Assembly (NCBI RefSeq): GCF_000020025.1
Contig: NC_010628.1
Location: 4,290,001 to 4,322,000 of the forward strand
From: Nostoc punctiforme PCC 73102
GTDB taxonomy: Bacteria > Cyanobacteriota > Cyanobacteriia > Cyanobacteriales > Nostocaceae
DNA length: 32,000 nt
Reading direction: 5' to 3'
Positions 4,354-22,538 of this stretch are shown here, one piece after another. The number at the start of each line of letters is the position of its first letter. The stretch's first letter is position 1. Both the position numbers and the translations under genes were made by a program. The notes beneath the pieces are model-generated. The model saw only the letters and a program-made list of their open reading frames with translations. It was not told the origin of the DNA and did no database searches.

Positions 4354-7300
4354 TTATCTATATTGCGCTCTTGACTGTCTAGAAGCAGTGCGGCTCTCAG
4401 CACGCTCAGTGCTTTCCTCAAAAGAGGATATTTCAGTTGGTTTTTGTATTAAATATTTAGCTAATGAGTTGATGGTTGGATATTCAAATAGGTTAATTAC
4501 TGATATATCTGTGTGCAAAAGTTCTCGTAGTTTGGCGTGAATTTGCACAAGAAGTAATGAATGACCACCAAGATCGAAGAAGTTATCGTAAATGCCCACC
4601 TTTTCAACATGAAGCATCTGTTGCCAGATATTAGCAATAGTTTGCTCTATCTCAGTTTGTGGTGGCTCATAAGTTGCTGCCAATTCTGGGCGATCGCCAT
4701 TTGATTCTGGGAGTTCTCTACGGTTCACTTTGCCATTGGGTGTTAGTGGCAAAGCTTTTAACATAATGAAAGTTGCAGGCATCATGTATTCTGGCAGTTT
4801 CTCCCTCAGAAATCTATACAGTTCGCTAACACTGAGTGTTTGCTGTTGCTTAGGAACAACATAAGCCACCAAGGATTTGTTGCCAAACTCCTCTTCTCGG
4901 ATAGAAGCTACAGCCTGCTGCACTTGCGGGTGTTGACACAGTGTAGTTTCAATTTCTCCTAGTTCAATGCGGAAGCCTCTAATTTTTACTTGGTGATCGA
5001 CTCGTCCAAGAAACTCAATATTACCGTCGGGTAAGTAGCGGGCTAAGTCACCAGTTTTGTATAATCGTGAACCTGGCTTAGAAGCAATCAATCCCGTATC
5101 TGCAAAAGGATTGGGAATAAACTGTGCTGCTGTTAAATCAGATTGATTCAGATAACCCCTAGCTAATCCCGCACCGCCGATGTACAATTCACCCGGTACG
5201 CCAACGGGTACTGGTTGCAGTTGCTCATCCAGTAGATAAATCTGCGTATTGGCAAGTGGACGACCAAGGGGTACTGTCTGTGTATGATTAATTTGCTGCT
5301 CAACTGCGAAGGTAGTAACCCCCACCGTGGCTTCTGTAGGGCCATAGTGATTGAAGATTAAACTAGATGGTACTTGCTGCTGAATCTGTTCAATCAGTTG
5401 CCAATTTGCAGCTTCGCCACCCAGAATTAATTGCTGGCGGGGCAAGATGGAATCGGATGGTGCAGCAGCCAGAAGAGTGGCAAGGTGAGAAGGGACAATT
5501 TTCAGACAGTCGATAGGATGTGTGCGGCAGTATTTTGCCAAGGCTGCTGAGTCAGTAGCACACTCGGCAGACAACACATGCAGACATCCACCAGTGCAAA
5601 GCGCAGCAAAGATGCCAGTATTACCTAAGTCTGCGGCTAAGGTAGAAACAGTGGCAAAATTGGTTGTGGTTGATAAGTCTAACCTCTGGGTAATTCCGTT
5701 AAGGTAATTTAGAAGTTGTTGGTGTTCAATCGCTACTCCTTTTGGTTTACCAGTAGAGCCGGAGGTGAATAAAACATAAGCTAAATTCTCAGTCGTAACT
5801 TCACTGCTGAGATTTTCATCTTTGTGTTGAGCAATGGTATCCCAATCTGTGTCTAAGCAGACTATCTGTGCTGTATGCGTTGGTAGGGCATTTACTAATC
5901 GCTGTTGTGTCAAGATTACTGGTATTTGGGTATTCTGCAATCGGCCAGCAATTCCATCTTTGGTTAAAGTTGGATCTAGCGGTAAATAGGCTCCACCAGC
6001 TTTGAGGATGCCCAAAAGTCCAATAATCATCAATAGCGATCGCTCTGTGCAAAGCCCTACTAAAACTTCCGGCTTGACTCCTTGCTGCTGTAAATAGTCG
6101 GCAAGTTGATTGGCTTTGCTATTCAACTGTGCATAGGTTAATTGCTGGTTTTCAAAGACAACGGCAATTTTATTCGGTGTTTTTTGTACTTGTGCTTCAA
6201 ATAGTTGATGAATGCATTTATGTTGTATATTGTCAAGATATGTTTGGTTAAATTCGACTAACAATTGTTGGCGATCGCTTGGACTGAGAATCTCTAATTG
6301 GCTAATTTTCTCTTCTGGATGAGCAGTTACACTAGTTAATAAAGTTTGAAATTGTCTGGCTATGCGTTCAATAGCATCGGCTGAGAAATAATTGATATCG
6401 TAGTAAAATTCTGTAGTTAAATAATGCTGGCGTTGATTACAACTAAGTTTGATTTTAAACTGTTCAATACAACTGTAATATTGCTCCAGAGAAAATGATA
6501 CATCGCCAGCAACGAGTTCTTCTGGTAGCTGTTCAAACTCGAAACCGATGGGAAAAGCCAGTTGATGATTTTCTATTGGTTCTGGCACAAAATAATCTTG
6601 CCATTCTGCACTAGCTTCTATAGTCCGATCGGCTAGTTCTACAACTTCTTTAAAACGTAAATCTGATGTCAAATAAGTTTTAATTGGCAACCAAGTAGCA
6701 ACAAGTCCTAGTAAGTTATGTAGTTCTTCATAATCGCGGCGATCGCTAGCCATACCGATGATGATATCTGGCTGTCTTGTAAGTCGCCAAATCAGCGTTT
6801 GCCAGCAAGCTAGTAAAACGACAGCAACGGAAGTATTATACTTTTGAGCTAAAGTGGCAATCTCGACTTTTATGTTAGAGGTAATATCTAAGCGATAACA
6901 GTCTACTTCAAACTTAGATGGCTGTAATAGTTTGTTCTCAAAAGGTAACTTTAAAGAGGCAAGTGTCGAAATCTTTTGCTCATCCCAGTATTTCTTAGCT
7001 GATTCTGCATCTTCATCTTCGAGTAATTGATTCTGCCATTCAGAAAATTGTATATATTGTACAACTTCTTCTGATACTGTTTTTTCTTGGAAACAAACAG
7101 AATAGGAATTGCTGATTTCAGTTACCAAATTTTTTAGTGCCCATGCATCAGCACAAAGTGAAGGCAGACTGATAAGTAAAATGTACTTATTTACTGATAG
7201 CCTCAGTAGAGATACATGCAACAGTGATCCTTGCTCAAAATCGAGAGAAAGACTTCGTGCTTCTTGGAAAAAATATTCTATTTGCCTTGAGAGTTCTTTT

Positions 7301-7581
7301 GGTTCGCAATCACTCAGATCAATGTCACGCCACGATAGAATATTCCTGTTTCCTAAAACCATCACAGGAATTTTCATTCCAGGTAGGTAGTGAAAAGTTG
7401 TATGCAGAATCCCATGTCGAATAACGACTTGCTCTAAAGCAGCTTTTAATGCTTCTGGTTTGATATTACCTTCAATAAGAAGGGCACATTGAGTAAAGTA
7501 AGCTAAACTATGCTGCTGTAATGACCAAAGACGCTTTTGTTGAGGAGAAAGCCGAAAACCCTGAGTTATTTTATTTGGCAT
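4354..7581 (-). CDS. NRPS: non-catalytic C-like (interface-like) domain - A (Asp-type code) - T
   Basis: ORF track, 1075 aa. The N-terminal ~430 aa have C-superfamily architecture, but the HHxxxDG position reads SLPSLCAD. A-domain cores: FTSGSTGKPKG, NHYGPTE, YKTGDL, KIRGFRIELGEIE, PNGKVNR. T domain: FFDLGGHSLL (Ser1008). Confidence 0.95.
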   Translation of the reverse strand: MPNKITQGFRLSPQQKRLWSLQQHSLAYFTQCALLIEGNIKPEALKAALEQVVIRHGILHTTFHYLPGMKIPVMVLGNRNILSWRDIDLSDCEPKELSRQIEYFFQEARSLSLDFEQGSLLHVSLLRLSVNKYILLISLPSLCADAWALKNLVTEISNSYSVCFQEKTVSEEVVQYIQFSEWQNQLLEDEDAESAKKYWDEQKISTLASLKLPFENKLLQPSKFEVDCYRLDITSNIKVEIATLAQKYNTSVAVVLLACWQTLIWRLTRQPDIIIGMASDRRDYEELHNLLGLVATWLPIKTYLTSDLRFKEVVELADRTIEASAEWQDYFVPEPIENHQLAFPIGFEFEQLPEELVAGDVSFSLEQYYSCIEQFKIKLSCNQRQHYLTTEFYYDINYFSADAIERIARQFQTLLTSVTAHPEEKISQLEILSPSDRQQLLVEFNQTYLDNIQHKCIHQLFEAQVQKTPNKIAVVFENQQLTYAQLNSKANQLADYLQQQGVKPEVLVGLCTERSLLMIIGLLGILKAGGAYLPLDPTLTKDGIAGRLQNTQIPVILTQQRLVNALPTHTAQIVCLDTDWDTIAQHKDENLSSEVTTENLAYVLFTSGSTGKPKGVAIEHQQLLNYLNGITQRLDLSTTTNFATVSTLAADLGNTGIFAALCTGGCLHVLSAECATDSAALAKYCRTHPIDCLKIVPSHLATLLAAAPSDSILPRQQLILGGEAANWQLIEQIQQQVPSSLIFNHYGPTEATVGVTTFAVEQQINHTQTVPLGRPLANTQIYLLDEQLQPVPVGVPGELYIGGAGLARGYLNQSDLTAAQFIPNPFADTGLIASKPGSRLYKTGDLARYLPDGNIEFLGRVDHQVKIRGFRIELGEIETTLCQHPQVQQAVASIREEEFGNKSLVAYVVPKQQQTLSVSELYRFLREKLPEYMMPATFIMLKALPLTPNGKVNRRELPESNGDRPELAATYEPPQTEIEQTIANIWQQMLHVEKVGIYDNFFDLGGHSLLLVQIHAKLRELLHTDISVINLFEYPTINSLAKYLIQKPTEISSFEESTERAESRTASRQSRAQYR
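4717..6219 (-). other. Adenylation domain, hand-extracted specificity code DLTKIGHVGK (Asp-like)
   Basis: Aligned by eye to GrsA-PheA positions 235/236/239/278/299/301/322/330/331/517: D651 L652 T655 K694 I719 G721 H745 V753 G754 K951. The published Asp code is DLTKVGHIGK. Confidence 0.7.
6277..7563 (-). other. C-like domain lacking the catalytic His motif (interface-like domain), approximate borders
   Basis: aa ~7-435 of ORF 4354..7581. It starts GFRLSPQQKRLW. The HHxxxDG position is ISLPSLCADAW (aa 137-147, nt ~7141-7173). Paralog of 15737..17029. Confidence 0.7.
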
Positions 7582-7586
7582 ATTAT

Positions 7587-8348
7587 CTACTCACTTAACG
7601 GTTTATGACAAACAAAGACGGCAGTATCAGACCCTCGTTCTACTCCCAAATCACGATTTATATCGTATATGGTAATTCCTGTAAATCCTACCTCTTCTAG
7701 AGCCGATTTAACCTCTGTTGTTGAATAAGCTTTTAAGAAAAAACTCCTATCCGATCGTTGCCAAAGACCATTTATTAATTGGAATCTAGTAGTATCTTTT
7801 CGACCAATTTTCTTTTCTGTATCGTAACTCCAAATATCTACCCAGACGTTATTATCTTTTACGCAACCACCAGTATCACTATTTTTCCAATCTAGTTCAC
7901 ACAATTCTTCCAGATACAATTCAAAGGCAAAGATACCATTTTCTAGCAGAGCATTATAAACATTTTGTAATGCATCTTTCAATTCCTCAATCCTGAGGAT
8001 ATAGTTGAGGACAACATCTGTCGAAATAGCTGCATAGAAAGTTGGTGGCAATTTAAAAAATCGGGCATCATCTAAAATAAATTTACCATCGGGTGCATTC
8101 TCCCTTGCAACCTTAAGCATTCCTTCAGAACTATCAAGTCCTGTTACTTGATACCCTCTTTTCAGTAATCGTTGTGCAATTTGCCCTGTACCGCAACCAA
8201 GGTCAAAAATGTGCGATCCTTTGGGAATATTTTTTAGAATTAATCTATCTATGCAATTTAATGTAATGTCATGATGCTCTAGACCTTTCAAGTCATACAT
8301 AGAAGCTATAGTATCATGATTGGTATTGCGTTGTTTGGAATACACCAT
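7587..8348 (-). CDS. Class I SAM-dependent methyltransferase (paralog of 29044..29790)
   Basis: ORF track 7587..8363 begins at a TTG that directly abuts the upstream stop. I prefer ATG 8348..8346, which is preceded by GAGGA (TTGAGGATAAACATTATG). SAM motif I is IFDLGCGTGQIAQRLL. Roughly half of positions are identical by eye to the other methyltransferase. Confidence 0.9.
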   Translation of the reverse strand: MVYSKQRNTNHDTIASMYDLKGLEHHDITLNCIDRLILKNIPKGSHIFDLGCGTGQIAQRLLKRGYQVTGLDSSEGMLKVARENAPDGKFILDDARFFKLPPTFYAAISTDVVLNYILRIEELKDALQNVYNALLENGIFAFELYLEELCELDWKNSDTGGCVKDNNVWVDIWSYDTEKKIGRKDTTRFQLINGLWQRSDRSFFLKAYSTTEVKSALEEVGFTGITIYDINRDLGVERGSDTAVFVCHKPLSE

Positions 8349-8363
8349 AATGTTTATCCTCAA

Positions 8364-11300
8364 TTATATTTCTTTAATCATTTCGCCCATTGCTACAACA
8401 ATTTTCCGAGAACCTACATAAGGATTCCGTCCGTGAGCAATTAGCATATTATCTAACATCAAAATATCACCTTGCTGCCAAGAAAAGCTCGTTTGACATT
8501 GCTGATAAACTTCATTAATTTCTGCAATAACTGAATCTTCTATAGGAGTACCATCTCCGTAATAAACATTACGCGGTAGCTGTTTATCTCCAAATGTAGA
8601 CAATAGAGATTCTCTAACTTCTGCGTCTAAATATGCTATATGGTGTAACTGAATTTGATTGAAAAATACAGACTCGCTAGTTTTTGGATGTACTGCCAAT
8701 GCTGGACGAACTTGGCGAGTAATTAGACTATTATTATACCATTCAAAATTAATTCTAGCTTGACGGCAATAATTTTCTACAACTAATTTGTCATTGCTAC
8801 GAAAGAAATTTTGCCAGCTTACATCCAGACCTTTGGTATAGTGACGGACGTACATTAATTGTTTTTGAGCTAATCTTTCTCTCAGTTTGGGATTGATTAT
8901 TTTGTAAGCTTTTCGACAGTCTATAATTGGTGTTTCTCCACCTTGTTGTGCTACTTGGATGCAGAAAAACCAAATTTTCAGAGGCCACTGATGTAAATGA
9001 GAACTTTCGTTATGAAAGAGAATAGCTTTTTTAGGCGGGTAAGGAGTAGAACCATAAACTTTACCACCCTCTCCAGTCCGGGGTAAATCACCATATTCAT
9101 CAAATAAGTCTGGAGAAATTACCTGGGCAAAATTTTCAAAATCTAATACTGATTCTATATTGAAGTCTCTAAACAAAATTGCGCCATGTTTTAACAATTC
9201 CTTGTCTAAAAATTCCTGATTCATTTTAGACCAAGCAATCAAATCAATATCGTTACTAGCAGGCTTAATTACTAGGGGAAATGTTTGTCCTGTTTGAAAG
9301 TAACAAGTTTCGACTAATTTTTCTGGCAACGAGCTAATAGCTTTAGGAGTAATGCCGATTAACTTCTCCTGATTAAATGCTTTACGCTCTCTTTTTTGCC
9401 TAACTTGTTGGTTTCTTTCAGCCTCAGTCAACATTTCTAAATTGCCAATCTGCACATCAGGTTGAGACACAATGCTGTTAAGCAGTGTCTGGAAGTGATT
9501 TGTCATCCGAGTGATGGTAGCAGCATCAAAAAGTTCGGCGTTATACTGCAACTTGCCCAAAATTCCCTGTTCTGTTTCTGTTAAAAATAGTGCTAAATCA
9601 AACCTAGCTATTTTGTTTTGAATTTCCAAGAAACTTAAGGTCAATCCTGGCAATTCTAAGGTTGGCATTGGGGCATTCTGAAGGACAAACAATACCTGAA
9701 ATAGTGGCGATGTATTACTCAAATTGCGCTCAGGTTGCAAAACCTCTACTAATTTCTCGAAGGGCAAATCTTGATGAGCATAAGCTCCTAATGCTACCTC
9801 GCGGACTCGCCCAAGTAACTCACGAAAACTGGGGTTTCCGCTCAAATCGGTGCGTAAGACCAGCAAATTGACAAAAAAGCCAATTAATGATTCGATTTCG
9901 GCTCGATTACGATTAGCAACATCAGTGCCAACAATGATGTCATCCTGCTGGGTATAAAGTTGTAGTAATATTTGAAACCCTGCCAGTAGGGTCATGAATA
10001 AAGTAGCACCCTCTTGGCGGGTAAGTGCTTGCAGTTGTTGAGATAGGTTAGAGGGAATGTTGAAGAATTGAGTTGCACAAGGACTAGTTTTAACTTCTGC
10101 CCGTGGGCGAACTGTAGGTAATTGCAGTATAGGAAGGTTGCTTCCTAATTGCTTTTTCCAGTAGCTAAGTTGAGCTTCTAGTACCTCCCCCTGCAACCAC
10201 TGTTTTTGCCAGATTGCAAAGTCTGCATACTGTATGGGTAGTTCTGAAAGCGGAGAAGGTTTTCCGGCACAAAATACCTCGTACAATGTTGCTAATTCTT
10301 GAACAAACACACCCATTGACCAGCCATCTGAGACAATATGATGGATTGTGAACAATACTATATGTTCTTGCTCGTGGATACGCAGGAGAGTACATCTTAG
10401 TAATGGCCCTTGCACTAGGTCAAAACACCGTTGCGATTCTTCTGTAATCAGTTGTTGAACAACAGCTTCCTTCTGTGCTTCTGGTAACTCCCGTAAGTCC
10501 ACTACTGGTATTTTGATAGTTAGACTGCAAGCGATCGCTTGAAATGGTTGTCCATTTACCATATAGAAGGTAGTACGCAACGCTTCATGACGACGGATTA
10601 TTTCCTGCAAACTCTGCTCCAGCACACCTAAATTTAGGGAACCAACGAGACGTAAACCAGATAGATCGTTGTAGGTTAAGCTGCCAGGATATAGTTGCTC
10701 TAGCAACCACAATCTAGCTTGAGCAAAAGATAGTGGTAAATTGCCATTTCGGGAAATGCGTGTGATGGCAGGAGTTTCTAGCTTTTGTTCCAGTCTCATC
10801 ACAATTTCAATCTGTTTAGCTAGGCTAGCGATAGTAGGTGATTCAAATAAGTGACGCAGGGGTAGTTCAAGGCAGAAAGCATCGCGCACGCGAGACATAA
10901 CTTGAGTGGCAAGTAAGGAATGTCCACCCAGTTCAAAAAAGTTGTCGTCAACTCCCACTTGCTCAACACCAAGAATTTGCTTCCAGATTCCGGCTAGGAC
11001 TTCCTCAACAGGATTACGCGGTGCCACAAAGACATGACCAAAATTGTCTGGCTCATGTTTTGGAAGCAACCGGATTTTCGGGATTTGATTGGCTGGAATT
11101 TTATCTAAAAGTGTTGCGATGTGTTGTTCTTCTGGAGCGGCAACTATGTTTTCAAGTAAGCCGATCAAATGGTCTTGAATGCAAGTAACGTCGGCTCTAT
11201 CGAAGCGACGTGTATCGTAGATCAGATCAAATCTGAGTTCTGAGTCTGGAACTACGAGCAACGTCAGGGCATATTTAGTTTGTGCCCCTTTAAAATGAGT

Positions 11301-12434
11301 CTGACTGATATTGATACTTAGAACTGATGATTGCTGTCTTGATATATCTGGAAAGTTCTCGAAAACTAGAAGACTTTCATAAAGAGACAAGGCTCCCGGA
11401 ACTTCACTCCATTGATGGATTTGACCAGTAGGGCTATATTCATACTGCTGAAGCTCTACATTATAGGTCTGGATGTCTTTGAGCCAAAACCAGAAAGATG
11501 CTCTAGGGGAAACCTTTACCCGTATGGGTAAGCTATTGATCAACATTCCAGTCATTGATTCAACCCCCTCTAAGTCTGACTGACGACCAGAGACGGTAAT
11601 GCCAAAAACGACATCTTCTTGCCGACTATAATGGCTCAAAAGCAATGCCCAAACTCCCTGAATAACCGTATTCAAAGTTAAGCGATATTGCTTTGCCAAA
11701 GATTGCAAGGTAGCTGTAGCAGGTGCTGATAAGTAAACTTTCTGTTCTCCGTAAATGTCTTCTGGGTCAGCGACACTTAGCGACTCTACTGTTGTTCCCA
11801 GTGGGGTTGGTCTGGTAAAACCCTGTAGAGTTTTGCGCCAGAATGCTTCTGGTTTGGACAAATCTTGTTTTTTCAGCCAAGCGATATAGTCTCTGTAGGG
11901 ACGAGGTTTTTCTAAATGTAGGTCTTGACCTTGACAGAACGCTTCGTAAAAGGCAAAGAATTCTTGGAAGATCGAAGAGACAGACCATCCATCCATCAAA
12001 ATATGGTGATGAGTGCAAATAAATTGATAATTTTCTTTACCCAAATGGATCAGAGCTAGGCGAATCAACGGTGCTTTGGAAAGGTTTATACCCTGATGAC
12101 GTTCTGCCTGAAGAAAAGCCTCTAGTTCTTCTTTGACTTGAGATGATGAAAACTGATGCCAGTCTAGTTGTTCAAGCGGTACTTTCACCTGTCGAAGTAC
12201 TACCTGAAGTGGCTCATCTTGTTCTTTCCAGATGAAACATGTTCTCAAGACTGAGTGGCGGTCTATAACCTGCTGCCATGCTCGCTCAAAGGCAGAAATA
12301 TCTAAATTTCCCTGAAAAACACCAGTCAATTGCTCAATATGGATGCCTGGCTCTGGAGAATACAGCGTCTCAAACAGCATACCTTGCTGTGGAGCCGAAA
12401 GGGGATAAATTGCTTCAATATTTTTCTTGTTCAT
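8364..12434 (-). CDS. NRPS with no adenylation domain: C - T - C - TauD/TfdA-type Fe(II)/2OG dioxygenase domain
   Basis: ORF track, 1356 aa. C1: IYPLSAPQQGMLFE, HHHILMDGWS (aa 142-151). T: FFELGGHSLLATQV (Ser506). C2: LSFAQARLWLL, HHIVSDGWS (aa 698-706). TauD: ILFRDF, FHNES (H1141/E1143), GGETPIID, AHGRNPY (H1334). No AMP-binding core motifs appear anywhere in the protein. Confidence 0.95.
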   Translation of the reverse strand: MNKKNIEAIYPLSAPQQGMLFETLYSPEPGIHIEQLTGVFQGNLDISAFERAWQQVIDRHSVLRTCFIWKEQDEPLQVVLRQVKVPLEQLDWHQFSSSQVKEELEAFLQAERHQGINLSKAPLIRLALIHLGKENYQFICTHHHILMDGWSVSSIFQEFFAFYEAFCQGQDLHLEKPRPYRDYIAWLKKQDLSKPEAFWRKTLQGFTRPTPLGTTVESLSVADPEDIYGEQKVYLSAPATATLQSLAKQYRLTLNTVIQGVWALLLSHYSRQEDVVFGITVSGRQSDLEGVESMTGMLINSLPIRVKVSPRASFWFWLKDIQTYNVELQQYEYSPTGQIHQWSEVPGALSLYESLLVFENFPDISRQQSSVLSINISQTHFKGAQTKYALTLLVVPDSELRFDLIYDTRRFDRADVTCIQDHLIGLLENIVAAPEEQHIATLLDKIPANQIPKIRLLPKHEPDNFGHVFVAPRNPVEEVLAGIWKQILGVEQVGVDDNFFELGGHSLLATQVMSRVRDAFCLELPLRHLFESPTIASLAKQIEIVMRLEQKLETPAITRISRNGNLPLSFAQARLWLLEQLYPGSLTYNDLSGLRLVGSLNLGVLEQSLQEIIRRHEALRTTFYMVNGQPFQAIACSLTIKIPVVDLRELPEAQKEAVVQQLITEESQRCFDLVQGPLLRCTLLRIHEQEHIVLFTIHHIVSDGWSMGVFVQELATLYEVFCAGKPSPLSELPIQYADFAIWQKQWLQGEVLEAQLSYWKKQLGSNLPILQLPTVRPRAEVKTSPCATQFFNIPSNLSQQLQALTRQEGATLFMTLLAGFQILLQLYTQQDDIIVGTDVANRNRAEIESLIGFFVNLLVLRTDLSGNPSFRELLGRVREVALGAYAHQDLPFEKLVEVLQPERNLSNTSPLFQVLFVLQNAPMPTLELPGLTLSFLEIQNKIARFDLALFLTETEQGILGKLQYNAELFDAATITRMTNHFQTLLNSIVSQPDVQIGNLEMLTEAERNQQVRQKRERKAFNQEKLIGITPKAISSLPEKLVETCYFQTGQTFPLVIKPASNDIDLIAWSKMNQEFLDKELLKHGAILFRDFNIESVLDFENFAQVISPDLFDEYGDLPRTGEGGKVYGSTPYPPKKAILFHNESSHLHQWPLKIWFFCIQVAQQGGETPIIDCRKAYKIINPKLRERLAQKQLMYVRHYTKGLDVSWQNFFRSNDKLVVENYCRQARINFEWYNNSLITRQVRPALAVHPKTSESVFFNQIQLHHIAYLDAEVRESLLSTFGDKQLPRNVYYGDGTPIEDSVIAEINEVYQQCQTSFSWQQGDILMLDNMLIAHGRNPYVGSRKIVVAMGEMIKEI
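8367..9317 (-). other. TauD-family dioxygenase domain fused to the NRPS C-terminus (approximate borders)
   Basis: aa ~1040-1356 of ORF 8364..12434. It aligns end to end with the free-standing TauD at 17085..18131. Shared blocks include GAILFR, KVY, QQGGETPI, LPRN.YYGDG..IEDSV, LLDN and VAMGEM. Confidence 0.85.
9435..10742 (-). other. Condensation domain C2 (LCL-like), paralog of the free-standing C protein at 18155..19741
   Basis: aa ~565-1000. Both C domains share HHIVSDGWS, ELPIQYADFAIWQKQWL, DVANRNR and GNPSFRELLGRVR. Confidence 0.85.
10800..11027 (-). other. Thiolation (PCP) domain with no cognate cis A domain
   Basis: aa ~470-545: PRNPVEEVLAGIWKQILGVEQVGVDDNFFELGGHSLLATQVMSRV. It lies only ~30 aa after the end of C1. 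Confidence 0.85.
11115..12416 (-). other. Condensation domain C1, probably DCL-type (it follows an E-domain protein)
   Basis: aa ~7-440. The N-terminus MNKKNIEAIYPLSAPQQGMLFE resembles the YxLTPMQEGMLFH starts of Bacillus C domains that follow E domains. HHHILMDGWS is intact. Confidence 0.7.
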
Positions 12435-12445
12435 TTTATCCTCAC

Positions 12446-15400
12446 TTAAGAAAAGTCTATTTCAGCAAAAGCCTTTTCTAATTTTTCTTGGCTTAGTTCA
12501 ACATCAGGAAAGTCAGAAGGAGTATAGCCAAATGCATCAGGAGACTGACTACGGACAATAAGAGCCCGCAGCACTTCTACACAACCTTGAGCTAAACCCT
12601 CAATTGTGGCCCGTTGATAAATGTTTTTGCTGTATATCCAATCTATTTGCAGCCGACCACCCATAACAAAGCCAATACACTCCAGCAAATGGCTCATGCT
12701 TCCTCGTGGACTGCGGTTTAGTCCGGGTATCAAGTGGGATAATCGAAACTCAGAATTTTCAGGGATAATTCGATCTAACTGACCCAAGTAGTTGAAAATA
12801 ACTTGAGCTTGAGGAAGGGCTTGTAGTTGCTCAACTATTTCTACATCCTCGCTCATATAGCGCAGTACGCCATAGCCAATGCCCTGGTTGGGAATTTTGC
12901 GAAGCTGTTCCTTGACTGATTTTAAGGTATTTTCTGGATAGATTTCCTCACCCAGTTCTAAGACAACTGGGAAGATGGTTGTGAACCAACCTACGGTGAG
13001 CGATAGATCCATATCGTCGAATATATCTTCTCGCCCGTGACCCTCTAAGTCAATTAATAGCGATCGCGAAGCGTCTCCTGTGGAGATTCGCTCTCCATTC
13101 CATTGTGCCAAAGTTTGTGCAACTGCTGTTATTAACAGGTCATTGATTTGGGTTAGATAAACCTGAGGAAGTTCTTGGAGCAATGCTTTAGTTTCTTCTG
13201 CACTGAGTTTGACTGATACAGTTTCGGCAGAAGCCATCAGGTTGTCCCCTCGCTCATTATCCATTGGCAGAGAAGAAATATATTTCCGCGATTCTGAGAG
13301 CCAATAAGGTAATTCTTGCTTTAGTTCTGCTGACTGCGCGTATTGCTCTAGTCGTTGCGACCACCGTTGAAACGAAGTAGTTTTTAGTGGAAGCTTAATT
13401 GCTTCACCCTGAGAAAGCTGTTGACAAAGTGTATATAGAGCGTCCAACAAAATTCGCCAAGAGACACCATCAACTACCAAGTGGTGCATAACAACCAACA
13501 TTCGGGCTGACTTTTGCACACCCAGTTCAAAAAAGGCCACCTTCAAAAGCGGCCCAGAGGATAGGTTCAGGCTCGCCTGTACTGTTTCTGTTGCTTCTTC
13601 AATGGCAGATTCTTGTTTTTCTGATGACAGCGCCGACAAATCCAGTCTGATAAAAGATAAAACTTCGTCTGGGCTAGCGTTGAACTGTTGCCAACCAGAT
13701 TCCGTCTGCATAAAACGCAGGCGGAGCGCATCATGGTGTATAAGCAATTGCTGTAGCGCCTGCTCTACGATTGATGGGTCGAGTTCTTGATTCACTTCCA
13801 GTTGGATTGACTGGTTCCAGTGGTGCGAATCAGGCTGATTTTGTGCTAGAAACCACGATTGGATGGGTGTCAGGGGTAATGAACCAACGATCGCTTCCTG
13901 TTGCGCTTGGATTGTGGGAGTGTTTCCCGCCACTGCGGCTAATTCAGCAATCGTTTGGCGATCGAAAATTTGACTGGTAGTTAGCTGTATACCAGTCTGC
14001 TTGGCTTTGGCGATCGCCTGAATGCTGAGAATAGAATCTCCGCCTAAGTCGAAGAAGTTGTCGTAAACGCCCACTCGATCGACACCAAGTACCTGACTCC
14101 AGATTTGGGCTAATATTTCCTCAACAGCAGTGCGCGGTGCAGCGTAAGTTGCTTCCAGTTCGGGTCTGGTTGTGTCTGGTGCTGGCAGTGCGCGTCGATC
14201 TACTTTGCCATTAGAAGTTAATGGTAGTGCCTTCAGGGATATCAAGGCTGAGGGCATCATGTATTCAGGTAGCTTCTGTTTGAGGAAACTTCGCAGATCG
14301 CTAAGGGAGGGTGACTCATGGTTCCAAACAATGTATGCCACTAAACGCTGGTTGCCTGGAACATCCTGCCGCGCTATCACTACTGTTTCTTGTACTCCCG
14401 AATACTCAGAGAGTACAGACTCAATTTCCCCTAGCTCAATGCGGAAGCCTCGAATCTTCACCTGGTCATCGCAACGTCCCAGGAACTCTAGCGTTCCATC
14501 TGGTCGGTAACGAACTAGGTCGCCAGTTTTATAAAGACGTTCCCCAGGTTCATTAGTGAAAGGGTTGGGGACAAATTTTTCTGCGGTCAGTTCAGGGCGA
14601 TTTAGATAGCCTCGGGCTACTCCCAAACCGCCAATGTATAGTTCACCCACCATCCCAATGGGGACTAACTGACAGTGCGGGTTAAGTACATACAGCTTGG
14701 TATTGGCAATTGGCTGACCAATTGGCACCGACCCTGATAGCTGTTCGCTACTTGGAACTTTATAAATGCAGCATCCCACAACTGTTTCTGTGGGGCCATA
14801 CTCATTGACAAGCATGGTGTCAGGAGCAGCCTTTTGCCAAAAGCTAATGCTGTTAACTAATAAATTTTCACCCCCAATAATGAAAGCCCTAGTTCGTCCA
14901 CTAGCTTCTTTTGGTGATATTTGCTGGTTGAGCAATTCCAGATGAACAGGTGTAATTTTAACCAGGCTTAAGTTGGAGTGGTGAAGTAGCGAGTTGCTTA
15001 GGGTTTCGATGCCCTGATCTTCCGGCAACAAGTCTACCCGACACCCTACCAGTAAGGGTGAAAACAGACTAGTTATTGTCAGGTCAAATGCTAAAGAAGA
15101 GTGAACTAGCGTCCCGTCTCCTTGCTCGACTGCGTAAGCTTGCGTACACCAGTTCAGATAATTTACCAAACCTTGATGGGGAATTAACGTCCCTTTGGGT
15201 TTACCAGTGGAGCCGGAGGTGTAGATGACGTAAGCTAGATTGAGAGCAGTTGTCTGACTGACTGGGTTTTCTGGACATTCGTTAGCGATAACTTCCCAGT
15301 CGGTATCTAGGCAAATGACTTTGATTCCCTCTGTTGGAATTTCGGCTACTAAACTTTGTTGGGTAAGCAGCACAAGAGCCTGAGTATCCCCAAGAATGAA

Positions 15401-17041
15401 GGCTTGGCGTTCCTTGGGATAGATGGGATCGATGGGAACATAAGCTCCACCTGCTTTGAGGATACCTAAGACTCCGATGACCATTTCTAGAGACCTCTCT
15501 ACGCAAATGCCCACTAGCACTTCGGAACCAACTCCCAGTTTTTGTAAGTAGTGAGCTAGCTGATTGGCGCGAGCATTGAGTTCGGCGTAGGTTAGTTGCT
15601 GGGTTTGAAATCTGACAGCGATGTTTTCGGGTGTGCGATCGCTCTGTAACTCAAACCAATGGTGGATGCACTGGTAGGGTAAAATAGTGGTTTGACTATT
15701 GTTAAATTCGGCTAAAAGTTGCTGACGCTCGATAGGACTGATAATGTCGAAAGTAGCGATCGCACCTCCGGGATTTTTAACCACACTGGTTAACAATGTC
15801 TCAAATTGATTCGCCAGACGCTGAATGTCTTCTAAAGCCAAAACATTCGCATCGTAGTGAAATTCAGCAGCTATACTATCATTCCGACTAACACAGGTTA
15901 GTTTGACCTGAAACTTATCAACACAAGTGTACTGTTGATAAATTGAAAAGTAGACATCGCCAGCAAAATGTTTAGCCGAGAGAGATTCAAAATCGAAACA
16001 GAATGGGAAGAATAACTGCTCTAGACTATTACCCGATTCAACACTTTTTTCCCAAGAAAAACTTTCTTGCCATTCAGATATTTCCTTTATAGTTTCTGCA
16101 ACCTGAACCAAGAGATTGTTGAACTTGTAGCTATCTTCGAGATGACACCGAAGAGGTAAATATTTAACAATTAGTCCCAACGATTCTTGTAATTCTTCAT
16201 AGCTGCGACCATCATTAACTGTACCAATAACTATGTCTGATTGTTCGGTGAGCCGCCATAGCAGAATTTGCCAGCAAGTTATAAAAAATACATCTTTATT
16301 AATTTTTTTACCGTGAGTAATGGCATTTATTTTTGCTACTAAATCAGGCGCAATTTCCCTACTAAACCATTTGGGTTCAAATTTTGAGTTCTCAGTTTGC
16401 TGATTTGCAAAAGGAAGCCGCAAGCCACTAAGACTAGAAATATCTAGCTTTCCCCAGTAATCTGTTTCTAATTCCACATCTCCTGCTTTCAGCAATTCAT
16501 TTTGCCATTCAGCAATCTCGGCATATTGTAAAGGTTGCTCAATAACTGTTTCGCCCCGTAAGCAAGCCGCGTAGCATTTGCTCAGTTCACAAACTAAATT
16601 ATTCAGGGTAGGTGAATCCGCACACAAAGCAGGCAAACTGACAAGTAATAAATGCTTTTTTGGTGAGAGAGTAGTGAAGGTTGTTTGCAAAAGTGGCCCT
16701 TTCTCCCAATCGAAACTTTGCTGAATTCCTGATTGAAACAGCTTCTCTATCTCTAATCCTAAAGCCTCTTTGTTTTCCCAAGAATATTCACTTAATGATA
16801 GGAGGGTAGGCTCATTAATTACCTGAATGGGAATTTTTATCCCACGGGTCTGATGAAAAGTCGTCCGGAGAATTTCATACCGATTTACTACTTGGTGTAA
16901 AGCTGCTTTTAAAATCTCCAGTTGCAAATTCCCTTCCAGGAGGATAGCACCATATACTTGATAATATTGACTGTCTTTTTGTAATAACCACAATCGCTTT
17001 TGTTGCGGTGAAAGTTGAAATCCGTGAATTTGTTTTTGCAT
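12446..17041 (-). CDS. NRPS: non-catalytic C-like (interface-like) domain - A (Asn/Asp-type code) - T - E
   Basis: ORF track, 1531 aa. The N-terminal C-like domain has VSLPALCADSP where HHxxxDG is expected. A cores: YTSGSTGKPKG, NEYGPTE, YKTGDL, KIRGFRIELGEIE, SNGKVDR. T: FFDLGGDSILSIQ (Ser1003, the GGDSI form typical upstream of E domains). E: LPLTPIQSWF, HHLVVDGVSWRIL (aa 1186-1198). Confidence 0.95.
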   Translation of the reverse strand: MQKQIHGFQLSPQQKRLWLLQKDSQYYQVYGAILLEGNLQLEILKAALHQVVNRYEILRTTFHQTRGIKIPIQVINEPTLLSLSEYSWENKEALGLEIEKLFQSGIQQSFDWEKGPLLQTTFTTLSPKKHLLLVSLPALCADSPTLNNLVCELSKCYAACLRGETVIEQPLQYAEIAEWQNELLKAGDVELETDYWGKLDISSLSGLRLPFANQQTENSKFEPKWFSREIAPDLVAKINAITHGKKINKDVFFITCWQILLWRLTEQSDIVIGTVNDGRSYEELQESLGLIVKYLPLRCHLEDSYKFNNLLVQVAETIKEISEWQESFSWEKSVESGNSLEQLFFPFCFDFESLSAKHFAGDVYFSIYQQYTCVDKFQVKLTCVSRNDSIAAEFHYDANVLALEDIQRLANQFETLLTSVVKNPGGAIATFDIISPIERQQLLAEFNNSQTTILPYQCIHHWFELQSDRTPENIAVRFQTQQLTYAELNARANQLAHYLQKLGVGSEVLVGICVERSLEMVIGVLGILKAGGAYVPIDPIYPKERQAFILGDTQALVLLTQQSLVAEIPTEGIKVICLDTDWEVIANECPENPVSQTTALNLAYVIYTSGSTGKPKGTLIPHQGLVNYLNWCTQAYAVEQGDGTLVHSSLAFDLTITSLFSPLLVGCRVDLLPEDQGIETLSNSLLHHSNLSLVKITPVHLELLNQQISPKEASGRTRAFIIGGENLLVNSISFWQKAAPDTMLVNEYGPTETVVGCCIYKVPSSEQLSGSVPIGQPIANTKLYVLNPHCQLVPIGMVGELYIGGLGVARGYLNRPELTAEKFVPNPFTNEPGERLYKTGDLVRYRPDGTLEFLGRCDDQVKIRGFRIELGEIESVLSEYSGVQETVVIARQDVPGNQRLVAYIVWNHESPSLSDLRSFLKQKLPEYMMPSALISLKALPLTSNGKVDRRALPAPDTTRPELEATYAAPRTAVEEILAQIWSQVLGVDRVGVYDNFFDLGGDSILSIQAIAKAKQTGIQLTTSQIFDRQTIAELAAVAGNTPTIQAQQEAIVGSLPLTPIQSWFLAQNQPDSHHWNQSIQLEVNQELDPSIVEQALQQLLIHHDALRLRFMQTESGWQQFNASPDEVLSFIRLDLSALSSEKQESAIEEATETVQASLNLSSGPLLKVAFFELGVQKSARMLVVMHHLVVDGVSWRILLDALYTLCQQLSQGEAIKLPLKTTSFQRWSQRLEQYAQSAELKQELPYWLSESRKYISSLPMDNERGDNLMASAETVSVKLSAEETKALLQELPQVYLTQINDLLITAVAQTLAQWNGERISTGDASRSLLIDLEGHGREDIFDDMDLSLTVGWFTTIFPVVLELGEEIYPENTLKSVKEQLRKIPNQGIGYGVLRYMSEDVEIVEQLQALPQAQVIFNYLGQLDRIIPENSEFRLSHLIPGLNRSPRGSMSHLLECIGFVMGGRLQIDWIYSKNIYQRATIEGLAQGCVEVLRALIVRSQSPDAFGYTPSDFPDVELSQEKLEKAFAEIDFS
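12542..13888 (-). other. Epimerization domain (approximate borders)
   Basis: aa ~1052-1500: PLTPIQSWF, HHLVVDGVSW, EGHGRE, FNYLGQ. The C-terminal tail TPSDFPDVELSQEKLEKAFAEIDFS looks like a COM-type donor helix. Confidence 0.85.
14177..15679 (-). other. Adenylation domain, hand-extracted specificity code DLTKIGEVGK (Asn/Asp hybrid)
   Basis: D653 L654 T657 K695 I721 G723 E747 V755 G756 K946, aligned by eye to GrsA-PheA. L236 is typical of Asp codes (DLTKVGHIGK). E322/V330 are typical of Asn codes (DATKVGEVGK). Confidence 0.65.
15737..17029 (-). other. C-like domain lacking the catalytic His motif (interface-like domain), approximate borders
   Basis: aa ~5-435 of ORF 12446..17041. It starts GFQLSPQQKRLW. 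The HHxxxDG position is SLPALCAD (aa 135-142, nt 16616-16639). Confidence 0.7.
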
Positions 17042-17084
17042 TTATCCTATTTACGCTTGATAGCGTATTTATATACTTTAGATG

Positions 17085-18131
17085 TTAGACATCTTCAAAG
17101 TTGGCCATTTCGCCCATTGCAACTAAGAGTTGCCTTTCTCCCATATATGAATTCCTACTATGAGCAGTTAATAGATTATCTAGTAGTAATAAATCTCCCC
17201 TTTTCCAAGGAAAGCTAACTTCTAATTGCTGATAGACTCCACAAATTTCTTCCAGTACCGAATCTTCAATAAGAGAGCCATCTCCGTAATAGCAATTTCG
17301 TGGTAAATCCTCTTGTTTAAACATTGATAAAAGGGACTCACGAGTTTGTGAATCTAAACAAGCTGGATGCCAATGTTGCGCTTGATTAAACCAAGACATT
17401 TCCTTAGTTTGAGGATGTTTGACAACTGCTGGACGAACAGCAATTGTCCTCAGTCGATTGCCTGTTTTCCATTCAAAATCAATTGCCGCTTTTGTACATG
17501 CAGCTTCTACTTCTAAGCGATCGCTAGTCTGAAAAACTGTTTCCCAATTCAATCCTAATCTATCCCCGTAGTTTCGGATATACATAACTTTCTTATCAAT
17601 AAATCGCTCTCTAATTTTAGGATCGATTAGCTGAAAAACTATCCGACTATCAACTATTGGTGTTTCTCCTCCCTGCTGTGCAGGCTGAAGACAACCAAAC
17701 AATATTTTTCTTGGCCAAGAATAATTAAATGAATTTTCGTTATGCCACAAGAGCTTTTTATCAGCAGGGTAAGATACTGGAGTATAAACTTTACCACTAA
17801 CACTTTTCCGGGGATGTTCCCCATTCTCATTAAACAAGTCTGAGCAAAGAGCCAAGCAAACTCGCTCAAATGTTGTTGCGGTGTCTACATTGAATCCTCG
17901 GAATAATATCGCACCATATTTTAGTAATTTTGTTTCTATAAAATTTTGGCTGCTCTCAATCCAATCGGCTAAATCAAGATAGTCAATATTAGGTTTTAGG
18001 ACGATCGGAAGTGTTTCCCAATGGGTGAGAAAATCTATCTTGATAAATTCTGTTTCTGACAAGTTAATTGTCTTTCGTCGCACTGTCTCTAATTTTATAG
18101 AGCTAGATTTTTTATTTTCTAATTTTTTCAT
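17085..18131 (-). CDS. Free-standing TauD/TfdA-family Fe(II)/2OG dioxygenase, putative T-domain-dependent Asx beta-hydroxylase
   Basis: ORF track, 348 aa. Motifs: AILFRGF, WHNENS (H130/E132), QQGGETPIVD, TAHSRNSY (H324). Roughly half of positions are identical by eye to the TauD domain at 8367..9317. It sits directly upstream of the Asx NRPS. Confidence 0.9.
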   Translation of the reverse strand: MKKLENKKSSSIKLETVRRKTINLSETEFIKIDFLTHWETLPIVLKPNIDYLDLADWIESSQNFIETKLLKYGAILFRGFNVDTATTFERVCLALCSDLFNENGEHPRKSVSGKVYTPVSYPADKKLLWHNENSFNYSWPRKILFGCLQPAQQGGETPIVDSRIVFQLIDPKIRERFIDKKVMYIRNYGDRLGLNWETVFQTSDRLEVEAACTKAAIDFEWKTGNRLRTIAVRPAVVKHPQTKEMSWFNQAQHWHPACLDSQTRESLLSMFKQEDLPRNCYYGDGSLIEDSVLEEICGVYQQLEVSFPWKRGDLLLLDNLLTAHSRNSYMGERQLLVAMGEMANFEDV

Positions 18132-18154
18132 AAAAACTAATTTGTTAACTCTTT

Positions 18155-19741
18155 TTATAAATTTTCACTAATGACCTTCCTTTGAACATTTTTTAATTTT
18201 TGGTAAAACACCTCTTTTTGTTTTATTTTATGGAGCATCTGCTGTTGCTTATCTGTTTTCTTTAAAATTTCTTCTAGTTGATTGAGTTCAGCATCCGGTT
18301 GTGTAACAACACTCGCTAAAATTATTTCAAAATGCTTCAGCATCCGGGTAATACTACTAGCATCAAATAGGTCTGTGTCGTACTCCAATAATCCTTTCAA
18401 TCCTTGCTCTGTCTCTCTTAGTTCTAAGTACAAATCAAGTTTGGTTTCCCCTGTTTCTACCTCATCCAAAATATTTACCGTTAAACCCGAAATATCCAAA
18501 GGTGGTAATGGAGCATTCTGGAGAACAAGTTTGACTTGAAACAGTGGCATACGGCTTCGGGTTCGCTCCAGTTTCAGGGCGTTCAGAAGTTTCTCAAACG
18601 GTAAATCCTGATGGGAATAGGCTGACAAAGTACAATCGCGTACTCGTCCAAGCAACTCTCGAAAGGTAGGATTTCCTGAGAGGTTTGTCCGCAATACCAG
18701 TTGATTTACAAAGAACCCGATTAGCCCTTCAACCTCTGGTCGATTGCGGTTGGCGACATCAGTACCTACAACTATGTCGTCTTGGTCTGTGTACCAGTGC
18801 AACAAAGTCTTAAAGGCTGCTAACAGTAGCATAAACAGCGTTATCCCTTCTTGCTGGCTCAGGACTTTTAGCTCTTGGGATAAAGCCTTTGGTAACATTA
18901 GAGTTTGTCTAGCCCCTCGGAAGGCTTGAACTGTAGGTCGAGGGCGGTCGGTAGGCAACTGCAATGTCGGAAGATTATGCAACTGCTGTTTCCAGTAAGC
19001 GACTTGAGTCTCTAATACTTCTCCCGCCAGCCACTGCCTCTGCCAAATAGCAAAGTCTGCGTACTGAATCGGGAGTTCAGGCAGGGTAGAGGGCTTACCA
19101 ATACTGAAAGCCTCGTAAAGCGCTACCAATTCACGAACGAGTACGCCCCATGTCCAACCGTCGGTGATAATGTGGTGCATAGTGATTTGCAGCAAATACT
19201 CTGTCTCACTCAGATGCAGTAAGATGCTCCGCAGCAATGGGCCCTGTTCTAAGTCAAAAAGCTGTTGGACTTCCTGAGTAGTGCGTCGCTGAACCTCTTG
19301 CTCACGCTCAACTTCCGGTAACTTTCTGAGGTCTACTCTCGGCAGAGTTATAGTCAAGGCTGGGGCAATGATTTGAACCGATTCTCCCTCTGCGATCGCA
19401 AAGGTGGTGCGTAGAGCTTCGTGACGGCGTACTATTTCATTTAAGCTCTGCTCCAGCACTGCTAGGTCGAGTGAACCGGTTATGTGTATAGATGCAACTT
19501 GATTATAGGCAGCGCTGTTTGGCTCCAATTGGTAGAGAAACCACATCCGCTGTTGAGCAAAGGATAGAGGTGCCGATCCGCGCTGGGAACGTCGAGGAAT
19601 AAGTTGTAATTGAGTATTAGATTCAAATCCGCATAACCGCTTTTTCAGCAGCGTTTGCTTGACAACGGAAAGCTGAGAACGTCGCCGGGAAATTTCATCT
19701 TTTTTCTGCTCAAAGCTTATACTATCGTTGCGAAAAGTCAT
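18155..19741 (-). CDS. Free-standing NRPS condensation-domain protein with a ~50-aa N-terminal docking-like extension
   Basis: ORF track, 528 aa. Motifs: LSFAQQRMWFLYQLEP, MHHIITDGWTWGVL, ELPIQYADFAIWQRQWL, DVANRNR. No A or T motifs are present. Confidence 0.9.
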   Translation of the reverse strand: MTFRNDSISFEQKKDEISRRRSQLSVVKQTLLKKRLCGFESNTQLQLIPRRSQRGSAPLSFAQQRMWFLYQLEPNSAAYNQVASIHITGSLDLAVLEQSLNEIVRRHEALRTTFAIAEGESVQIIAPALTITLPRVDLRKLPEVEREQEVQRRTTQEVQQLFDLEQGPLLRSILLHLSETEYLLQITMHHIITDGWTWGVLVRELVALYEAFSIGKPSTLPELPIQYADFAIWQRQWLAGEVLETQVAYWKQQLHNLPTLQLPTDRPRPTVQAFRGARQTLMLPKALSQELKVLSQQEGITLFMLLLAAFKTLLHWYTDQDDIVVGTDVANRNRPEVEGLIGFFVNQLVLRTNLSGNPTFRELLGRVRDCTLSAYSHQDLPFEKLLNALKLERTRSRMPLFQVKLVLQNAPLPPLDISGLTVNILDEVETGETKLDLYLELRETEQGLKGLLEYDTDLFDASSITRMLKHFEIILASVVTQPDAELNQLEEILKKTDKQQQMLHKIKQKEVFYQKLKNVQRKVISENL

Positions 19742-20866: not shown

Positions 20867-20870
20867 GTGT

Positions 20871-22055: not shown

Positions 22056-22093
22056 CACATCAATGAGGTAGATAAATACCGTCAATTTTTGGT

Positions 22094-22345: not shown

Positions 22346-22538
22346 AATTTAACGCTATTTGTGTAATTTTATATTTATCGCAGACCGATATGATTTATCC
22401 AAAATACTTGTTTTAACGAACCATAAATAACAAGAAGGCAATAAAAATAACTGATTTCACAAATGATTGAGGAATGCTATGGTCATCTTCTTATTTATTG
22501 GTATAGCAATCAGATAAAATGAAAAAGAATTTTACAAA

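Follow-up and report, generated by a model that had tools for sequence, protein, structure and literature searches.

Why would one assembly line encode the same kind of hydroxylation module twice, once in separate proteins and once partly fused? The question is raised by 32,000 nt of the Nostoc punctiforme PCC 73102 genome (NC_010628.1, positions 4,290,001-4,322,000; assembly GCF_000020025.1), hereafter called the window. Two collinear units lie in it, and each of them combines a condensation (C) domain, a TauD-family hydroxylase, and a nonribosomal peptide synthetase (NRPS) gene with an adenylation (A) domain and a carrier (T) domain for aspartate or asparagine (Asx). An earlier note on this DNA had read the two units as a snapshot of fusion or fission within a single hydroxylase lineage. 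Our analyses lead to a different answer: the units are probably interface-type modules for on-line β-hydroxylation, one of Asn and the other of Asp, which come from two old lineages and stand together in the cluster pks4.

Two split hydroxylation modules in pks4

Every gene of the window is located on the minus strand, and the coordinates of the open reading frames (ORFs) are exactly those given in the earlier note. Six of the encoded proteins are exact matches to ACC81844-ACC81857 of N. punctiforme ATCC 29133 / PCC 73102. By our own mapping, made from the locus-tag order and the product names of a published table, the two-unit region corresponds to Npun_R3433 to Npun_R3438 within pks4 (Npun_R3414-R3453), which is a hybrid polyketide synthase (PKS)/NRPS assembly line.

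ORFs and Pfam domains reproduce both four-part units at the positions listed in Table 1. In copy 1, a free C protein (C1) and a free hydroxylase (TauD1) are followed by an NRPS that opens with a C-like domain (I1) and continues with A, T, and epimerization (E) domains. In copy 2, the C domain (C2) and the hydroxylase (TauD2) form the end of one protein, and a methyltransferase gene separates them from an NRPS of the order C-like domain (I2), A, and T. The quoted histidine motifs of the C and E domains and both sets of metal ligands were found again (Table 1), as were the two specificity codes, DLTKIGEVGK and DLTKIGHVGK, while HHxxxDG is missing from both N-terminal C-like domains. Both copies show the features of a split, interface-type β-hydroxylation module, in agreement with the earlier proposal: a TauD-family hydroxylase with an intact metal triad lies directly upstream, after a C domain, and the NRPS gene that follows opens with a His-less C-like domain.

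Interface domains in other genomes

How general is this arrangement? A scan for hydroxylase relatives, with each species represented by a single genome, gave at least 80 loci, of which 79, with 10-kb flanks and 104 hydroxylases, were used; the ORFs were called stop to stop, and some “free” calls in GC-rich genomes or short metagenomic contigs may be wrong. In 99 of 104 cases, the NRPS gene after the hydroxylase starts with a domain whose best match is an interface (I) domain of the window, followed by A and T domains; 89 of these 99 have no detectable His motif. This opening is found after free and C-fused hydroxylases alike. I1, I2, and the N-terminal domains of CcsI and CcsL, the NRPSs of the cyanochelin system, form one clade apart from the C and E domains (neighbor-joining bootstrap 98%), in which the usual substitute for HHxxxDG is LP[AS]LCAD. 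Later papers attribute the design to Reitz et al. 2019, and profiles for the hydroxylases and the interface domain are now included in antiSMASH. Cyanochelin researchers use it as a marker of β-hydroxyaspartate (β-OH-Asp) modules. Searches for structures resembling a carrier-dependent β-hydroxylase or an interface domain (PDB, Foldseek) gave no specific match; the best hits of the I domains are ordinary C domains, and PDB 8z0q, a “special condensation domain”, matches them less well than these do. NCBIfam likewise offers no specific family for the hydroxylases and I domains, and FkbH is the sole protein that it names with confidence.

The position of the protein break is also regular, in that the C domain of the hydroxylation module always lies on the hydroxylase side of the break in the related loci. 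After an upstream NRPS module, this C domain makes up the C-terminus of that NRPS (L011, L012, L017). After a PKS or an FkbH cassette, it is encoded separately, as a protein of about 520 residues (L010, L013-L016, the Nostoc NIES-3756 plasmid, and the window), and in a CcsH-type module so placed the C-TauD pair is a discrete two-domain protein (L038, L082, L085). Free C proteins occupy the equivalent position in L010, L013-L016, and the Nostoc NIES-3756 plasmid, and C1 is the C domain of the Asn module. Free and fused hydroxylases side by side are common: about a dozen loci of Microcoleus, Tychonema, Nostoc, and Anabaena in the 79-locus sample have the layout free TauD, I-A(Asp)-T, C-A(Gly)-T-C-TauD, I-A(Asp)-T.

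Hydroxylase lineages and their partner substrates

Which amino acid does each module activate? DLTK[IV]GEVGK is the Stachelhaus code of Asn, and A1 reads DLTKIGEVGK by alignment to GrsA-PheA; A2 reads DLTKIGHVGK. As a positive control, CcsI and CcsL both read DLTKIGHVGK, and their residues in cyanochelin B are reported to be β-OH-Asp. Copy 2 alone, and not copy 1, has the code of these experimentally established β-OH-Asp modules. The expectation of two β-hydroxy-Asx residues, one of them in the D configuration through the E domain, is still a sensible prediction, but the two residues are not interchangeable, the codes being those of Asn and Asp.

The hydroxylases were compared in neighbor-joining trees on simple corrected distances (numpy implementation with bootstrap). 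Among the database hits, TauD1 and TauD2 fall into separate halves of the tree. A second tree, of 109 hydroxylase domains from genomes in which the context is known, contains three groups. The Asn group, to which TauD1 belongs (n=43, bootstrap 42%, 24 fused and 19 free), is paired with 31 Asn codes and 2 truncated Asx codes; 9 partner codes were not recovered, and the one other code is probably an artifact of overlapping stop-to-stop ORFs in Streptomyces (L078). The CcsK group, which includes CcsK itself (n=24, bootstrap 96%), is entirely free and is paired with Asp, His, and Gln codes. The CcsH/TauD2 group (n=35, bootstrap 80%), which contains the CcsH hydroxylase and TauD2, is entirely fused and paired with Asp throughout. 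Assignment by the closer of the two window hydroxylases gives a similar partition: those closer to TauD1 are accompanied by DLTK[IV]GEVGK in 30 cases, with 4 Asp, 1 Gln, and 2 His codes as exceptions, and those closer to TauD2 by DLTK[IV]GHVGK in 40 cases and by the Asn code in none.

Just two alignment columns separate the Asn-paired from the Asp-paired hydroxylases almost completely. At residue 118 of TauD1 (window about 17778-17780), Pro is found in 100% of the Asn-paired enzymes and Ser in 100% of the Asp-paired enzymes. At residue 253 (window about 17373-17375), His in 97% of the Asn-paired enzymes stands against Leu in 91% of the Asp-paired enzymes, and the Gln- and His-paired enzymes have Phe. 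Residues 118 and 253 of TauD1 are candidate specificity determinants. TauD1-type enzymes are spread over Nostocales, Acidobacteriota, Chloroflexota, and Streptomyces. All 8 sampled cyanobacterial loci of the Asn type have a free hydroxylase, and so do the window and the Nostoc NIES-3756 plasmid; outside cyanobacteria fusion prevails in this type, with 11 of 18 hydroxylases fused in Acidobacteriota and Chloroflexota and all 4 in Streptomyces. The fusion state is typical of each lineage and not transitional.

We tentatively propose, with confidence just short of even, that TauD1 represents an undescribed family of interface-dependent Asn β-hydroxylases (“IbH_Asn”), which would supply D-β-hydroxyasparagine (D-β-OH-Asn) to a glycosylated lipopeptide metallophore. 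This family would differ from the published classes IbH_Asp, IbH_His, TbH_Asp, and CyanoBH_Asp1/2. In the literature searched, a lineage of interface-dependent hydroxylases tied to Asn was not found described, apart from a one-line curator comment (PMC12971057). Later literature names two extra cyanobacterial hydroxylase clades and mentions “several unreported clades”, one of which may be the Asn-type lineage.

The surveyed loci also contain variants of the design. In L026, L032, and L037 (Acidobacteriota) and in L075 and L084 (Nostocaceae), free CcsK-group hydroxylases precede interface-A-T modules with Gln (DAWQFGLIDK) or His (DSALIAEVWK) codes, and the interface design seems to serve the β-hydroxylation of Gln and His as well, in both cyanobacteria and Acidobacteriota. 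In Streptomyces (L067, L071, L072, L077, L078), a C-A(DIFAVGGTFK)-T module is followed by a fused C-A(DLTKVGEVAK)-T-C-TauD protein and by I-A(DLTKVGEVGK)-T; this small NRPS is conserved and contains an actinomycete Asn-type interface module.

Proposed course of the reaction

How would the two modules work? Their domain order and codes suggest the following steps.

Amino acid loading: The A domain of each module would load its amino acid onto the adjacent T domain, Asn in the case of A1 and Asp in the case of A2.

Hydroxylation: The dead C-like interface domain would bring the TauD-family hydroxylase to the T-bound amino acid, and the hydroxylase would then add a hydroxyl group at the β carbon.

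Condensation and epimerization: The upstream C domain, which lies on the hydroxylase side of the protein break, would subsequently condense the chain with the hydroxylated residue. Epimerization of the first residue by E1 would make D-β-hydroxyasparagine the predicted contribution of module 1, and L-β-hydroxyaspartate would be that of module 2.

Weighing the explanations

Could the two units have arisen by duplication inside pks4, with one hydroxylase lineage caught between the fused and the unfused state? The counterparts are certainly alike in BLASTP comparisons of copy 1 with copy 2: the C domains share 57.5% identity (E=0), the hydroxylases 46.9% (E=1e-115), the I domains 42.5% (E=1e-124), and the A domains 50.0% (E=4e-172), a similarity far beyond chance. 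The three peptides cited as common to the C domains occur in both, and each of the earlier statements on the sequence was reproduced. The units are collinear, each part is the best match of its counterpart within the window, and C1 is about as close to C2 as to any sampled C domain (59% for the best match elsewhere, the exception among the parts). Occasional changes of fusion, as in the 3-nt gap of Nostoc cf. commune SO-36 and in a few fused proteins among the relatives of TauD1, would also fit. The counterparts are each other's closest relatives only inside the window, however. In other genomes, 7 of the 8 compared parts have clearly closer relatives; the best matches in the sampled genomes reach 69% for TauD1, 71% for A1, 52% for I1, 76% for C2, 80% for TauD2, and 77% for I2. 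TauD1 and TauD2 are 47% identical to each other, yet each has more than 100 closer relatives: those of TauD1 in the database, over 100 at 55-94% identity, are nearly all free proteins of about 345 residues, and those of the TauD2 domain, at 55-71% identity, are in many cases fused to a C domain. They belong to different tree groups, are paired with different A-domain codes in all informative loci, and differ in fusion state (free in the 8 cyanobacterial Asn-type loci, fused in all 35 members of the CcsH-type group). At the DNA level, the copies share two short matches only, one of 50 nt (84%) and one of 34 nt (76%), and no repeat tracts beyond these. On the strength of these two matches and of the closer relatives elsewhere of most parts, a recent in-cluster duplication or gene conversion was rejected, and the wider reading of a duplicated module in transition is largely refuted and very improbable. 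The halves of the cluster also travel separately: the FkbH cassette, free C protein, free TauD1, and I-A(Asn)-T co-occur in L014 and L015, and C-TauD2, the methyltransferase, I-A(Asp)-T, and KS-AT co-occur in Nostoc sp. PCC 9305 (L086) at 75-83% identity. Because the design is a known one and the lineages are old and separate, the two units are not a fresh duplication; they appear, from these comparisons, to be members of two old, substrate-partitioned lineages, probably joined by recombination of cluster halves.

The hydroxylation chemistry and the final product each allow a further alternative. A stand-alone enzyme such as TauD1 could in principle use a free amino acid; acting on L-Asn as AsnO does, it would leave A1 to take pre-formed β-OH-Asn, and the His-less domain would be a relic. 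The A-domain codes of Asn and of hydroxy-Asn are not known to differ in sequence, as the CDA system illustrates. Kinship with the free-amino-acid hydroxylases, which the earlier note had named as fatal to its proposal, was not detected for TauD1: phmmer against the PDB matched only At3g21360 and one uncharacterized TauD-like protein, with no AsnO or VioC, and neither enzyme is among the top 50 Foldseek matches of the AlphaFold2 model (pLDDT 86.6, TauD fold), which comprise At3g21360 and enzymes of the TauD/TfdA type. Neither phmmer against the PDB nor Foldseek found a solved structure of a close TauD1 relative. Members of TauD1's group are often fused to NRPS C domains, and the His-less domain is conserved, monophyletic, and present beside these hydroxylases in four phyla (the 99 of 104 given above), which argues that it is no relic. 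We consider hydroxylation of free Asn very unlikely.

The product of pks4, as predicted from domain order and codes, is likely to carry D-β-OH-Asn and β-OH-Asp. The same modules could build a glycosylated bioactive lipopeptide that is no siderophore, in which the β-hydroxyl group anchors an ester, a lactone, or a sugar, and the methyltransferase encoded between TauD2 and I2 caps β-OH-Asp, for example as a methyl ether or ester. β-OH-Asn is not an α-hydroxy-carboxylate iron ligand. D-3-OH-Asn made by a TauD/TfdA enzyme is the lactonization point in clovibactin, and (2R,3R)-3-OH-Asn occurs in the cyanobacterial laxaphycin-B lipopeptides, which carry β-amino fatty acids; the window encodes an aminotransferase beside the PKS, and a glycosyltransferase. 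The methyltransferase is kept in the same place between C-TauD2 and I-A(Asp)-T in L086 (75% identity) and L079 (about 66%), and pks4 responds to cell density and chemical mediators. Several lines of evidence count against this lipopeptide. A published study (PMC11890772) describes pks4 as a cryptic siderophore cluster next to which a TonB-dependent receptor, Npun_R3454, is encoded, and reports its upregulation in a co-culture with indications of iron deficiency. The curators of the antiSMASH metallophore rules scored region 014 of N. punctiforme as a predicted metallophore, positive for synthesis and transport, and as a true positive for the NRP-metallophore rule (PMC12971057); region 014 is most probably pks4, and the curator comment in row 30 of sheet 1b of Supplementary file 1 independently agrees with the Asn assignment. 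The Asn-type module of the NIES-3756 plasmid adjoins an Orn-coded module, FetB, and a Fur regulator, and TauD2, I2, and A2 most resemble siderophore modules of the cyanochelin type. The siderophore role suggested earlier is therefore plausible; we infer that the balance favors a siderophore, and regard a lipopeptide of another function as unlikely.

For the two interface-type modules of separate lineage, a number of points weigh on the other side. Each module step in N. punctiforme is predicted, the product of pks4 being uncharacterized, and the docking role assigned to the interface domain is taken from a published proposal. The specificity codes are predictions as well. The Asn group has weak clade support (bootstrap 42%, neighbor joining on simple distances), sorting of the I domains by substrate through BLAST against I1 and I2 gave mixed results, and the locus counts of the genome survey (at least 80) are lower bounds. 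β-OH-Asn is also not a classical Fe(III) ligand, and it sits awkwardly with a siderophore role of module 1.

Changes of fusion state do occur in these lineages, although the window itself is no such snapshot. In L089 (Nostoc cf. commune SO-36, AP025732.1 5988710-6005789), a hydroxylase of the TauD2 lineage (66% identical) begins 3 nt after the C domain that precedes it, and the I-A-T-reductase gene downstream is split up among several small ORFs, reflecting either a decaying cluster or sequencing errors.

Features and gene neighborhood

Table 1. Positions of the two modules and of neighboring features in the window.
Feature	Locus tag	Position	Strand	Description
I-A-T NRPS of copy 2	Npun_R3433	4354-7581	-	Pfam: Condensation, AMP-binding, PP-binding
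T2, carrier		4450..4644	-	GGHSL motif
A2		4729..6201	-	DLTKIGHVGK (Asp), read by alignment to GrsA-PheA
I2, interface-type C-like domain	Npun_R3433, N-terminus	6217..7581	-	SLPSLCADA in place of HHxxxDG
Methyltransferase, dependent on S-adenosylmethionine (SAM)	Npun_R3434	7587..8363	-	Pfam assignment; between C-TauD2 and its I-A-T gene
C-T-C-TauD NRPS	Npun_R3435	8364-12434	-	Pfam: Condensation, PP-binding, Condensation, TauD
TauD2, fused hydroxylase domain		8367..9398	-	Pfam TauD E=3e-46; ligands H1141/E1143/H1334, columns invariant in family alignments
C2, C domain of the Asp module, fused to hydroxylase		9408..10745	-	HHIVSDGWS; best relatives elsewhere 72-76% identical
T0, carrier of the A-less C-T module		10812..11000	-	GGHSL intact
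C0	Npun_R3435, start	11040..12434	-	HHHILMDGWS; after the E domain; opens the A-less module
I-A-T-E NRPS of copy 1	Npun_R3436	12446-17041	-	Pfam: Condensation, AMP-binding, PP-binding, Condensation (E)
E1, epimerization		12539..13882	-	HHLVVDGVSW; 52% identical to the cyanochelin CcsL E domain
T1, carrier		13934..14116	-	GGDSI motif
A1		14204..15655	-	DLTKIGEVGK (Asn), read by alignment to GrsA-PheA
I1, interface-type C-like domain	Npun_R3436, N-terminus	15677..17041	-	Pfam Condensation; SLPALCADS in place of HHxxxDG
TauD1, stand-alone Fe(II)/2-oxoglutarate hydroxylase	Npun_R3437	17085..18131	-	348 aa; TauD only, Pfam E=3e-42; ligands H130/E132/H324, columns invariant in family alignments
C1, free C protein	Npun_R3438	18155..19741	-	528 aa; Condensation only, Pfam E=1e-116; HHIITDGWT intact
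FkbH-type extender-unit cassette		19796-23405	-	FkbH (TIGR01686, 291 bits), acyl-CoA dehydrogenase, acyl carrier protein (ACP), 3-hydroxyacyl-CoA dehydrogenase
ACP of the cassette		about 22094-22345	-	83 aa
Second SAM methyltransferase		29044-29790	-	related to Npun_R3434
Third TauD/TfdA-family protein		30005-30898	-	297 aa; H93-x-E95; between glycosyltransferase and methyltransferase

In the order of transcription, as assigned with Pfam and NCBIfam, the window encodes first a glycosyltransferase, a third TauD-like protein, a methyltransferase, a class-III aminotransferase, and a PKS with ketosynthase (KS), acyltransferase (AT), and ACP domains. The 3-hydroxyacyl-CoA dehydrogenase, the small ACP, the acyl-CoA dehydrogenase, and FkbH come next, and are followed by the free C protein, the free TauD protein, and the I-A-T-E NRPS. 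The C-T-C-TauD NRPS, the methyltransferase, the I-A-T NRPS, and a KS-AT protein complete the order. The FkbH-type cassette is complete and lies immediately upstream of the free C protein. It suggests a glyceryl unit or else hydroxymalonyl- or methoxymalonyl-ACP, and it also stands ahead of the hydroxylase module in L014, L015, and L082. The third TauD-like protein shows about 25% identity to TauD1 or TauD2 by BLASTP, and no interface domain comes after it. Methyltransferases similar to the window pair are elsewhere placed after a terminal aminotransferase.

The A-less C-T module at the start of Npun_R3435 has parallels. Cylindrospermum sp. NIES-4074 (L080) has the same C-T-C-TauD layout, with T0 75% and C0 57% identical, and a C-T insert is present in the acidobacterial locus L042; most relatives have a Gly module, C-A(DILQLGLIWK)-T, at this position.

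At the C1/TauD1 junction (18100-18200), the Lys/Gln-rich tail of C1 and the first ~25 residues of TauD1 align to a single linker of the fused protein, at NRPS residues about 1010-1035 of the C-TauD2 protein, in a weak similarity of low complexity. Residues 1-24 of TauD1 have very low AlphaFold confidence. The junction may be a flexible docking segment or a linker remnant; as a trace of fission it was not relied on, given the weak, low-complexity similarity.

Implications

If the hydroxylase clades track the partner substrate (Asn and Asp, and also Gln and His), genome mining could predict which residue is hydroxylated; the current mining rules hold Asp and His classes only. The pairing of hydroxylase and interface domain, fused or free, is well suited to the study of how tailoring enzymes are recruited by dead condensation domains, and both configurations are present in the single assembly line of the window. 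For N. punctiforme, a model organism of symbiosis, the modules also allow the structure of the long-cryptic pks4 product to be predicted in concrete terms. Should the IbH_Asn proposal hold, β-hydroxyasparagine would be a building block of siderophore-type clusters, and its use in iron binding, if true, would be new siderophore chemistry.

Comparison with known systems

How do the two modules relate to the hydroxylases already described? Stand-alone TauD-family enzymes that act on carrier-bound Asx form the TbH_Asp or SyrP-like class, exemplified by PtcA of potashchelin. TauD1 resembles them in standing alone, and differs from them in the Asn code and in the interface-type domain with which its target module opens. 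Reportedly, the TbH_Asp class of the 2019 scheme is not associated with an interface domain. In the clovibactin system, the TauD/TfdA dioxygenase CloD gives 3-hydroxyasparagine, which is D-configured, and AsnO of the CDA system, which supplies 3-hydroxyasparagine to a nonribosomal peptide too, acts on free Asn. The part of the published description that presents the clovibactin cluster reports no interface domain. A plasmid-borne TauD/TfdA homolog of Eleftheria terrae is about 40% identical to TauD1.

The proteobacterial IbH_Asp modules of cupriachelin and potashchelin (PtcB) have a TauD domain fused after the C domain at the NRPS C-terminus, which acts on the Asp of the next module, and a non-catalytic member of the C superfamily before the A domain. 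Copy 2 agrees with this description point for point, including the fused hydroxylase and the Asp code. Copy 1 shares the interface domain with them, but differs in its free-standing hydroxylase, its free-standing C domain, and its Asn code; proteobacterial plasmid-borne homologs are about 36-44% identical to TauD1.

The closest parallel is the cyanochelin family. In cyanochelin B (Leptolyngbya sp. NIES-3755 plasmid 2), a fused CcsFGH precedes CcsI, and a free CcsK precedes CcsL with its E domain; in the fetched record, CcsI and CcsL both start with a His-less domain. In cyanochelin C (Myxacorys spp., preprint), ccsH is split into two ORFs, C and TauD, before ccsI, and a fused ccsJK lies before ccsL. 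Like pks4, both clusters are PKS/NRPS hybrids and contain two modules for hydroxylated Asx, one fused and one free hydroxylase, a His-less-C-A-T gene after each hydroxylase, and an E domain in one module. This parallel bears on the statement in the earlier note that the locus does not fit the published dichotomy of fused and stand-alone enzymes. A free hydroxylase beside an interface domain does lie outside the 2019 scheme, as far as later papers summarize it, but cyanochelins B and C already show this arrangement, including split C and TauD ORFs beside a fused C-TauD.

The likeness to cyanochelin is strongest for copy 2: A2 is 56-58% identical to the A domains of CcsI and CcsL, with the same code, and TauD2 is 59% identical to the fused hydroxylase of CcsFGH (CcsH). 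TauD1, in contrast, belongs to neither the CcsH nor the CcsK group (50% and 44% identity) and has an Asn-coded partner instead of an Asp-coded one. At 44% identity, and excluded from the CcsK group (bootstrap 96%), it was rejected as an ortholog of CcsK. pks4 therefore lacks the cyanochelin combination of one CcsH-type and one CcsK-type hydroxylase on two Asp modules. The fused and free units stand in the opposite order to those of cyanochelin B, and pks4 has in addition the FkbH cassette, the A-less C-T module, the internal methyltransferase, and the glycosyltransferase. The module architecture and the cryptic cluster were thus already known, and the Asn-type lineage looks to be the new part.

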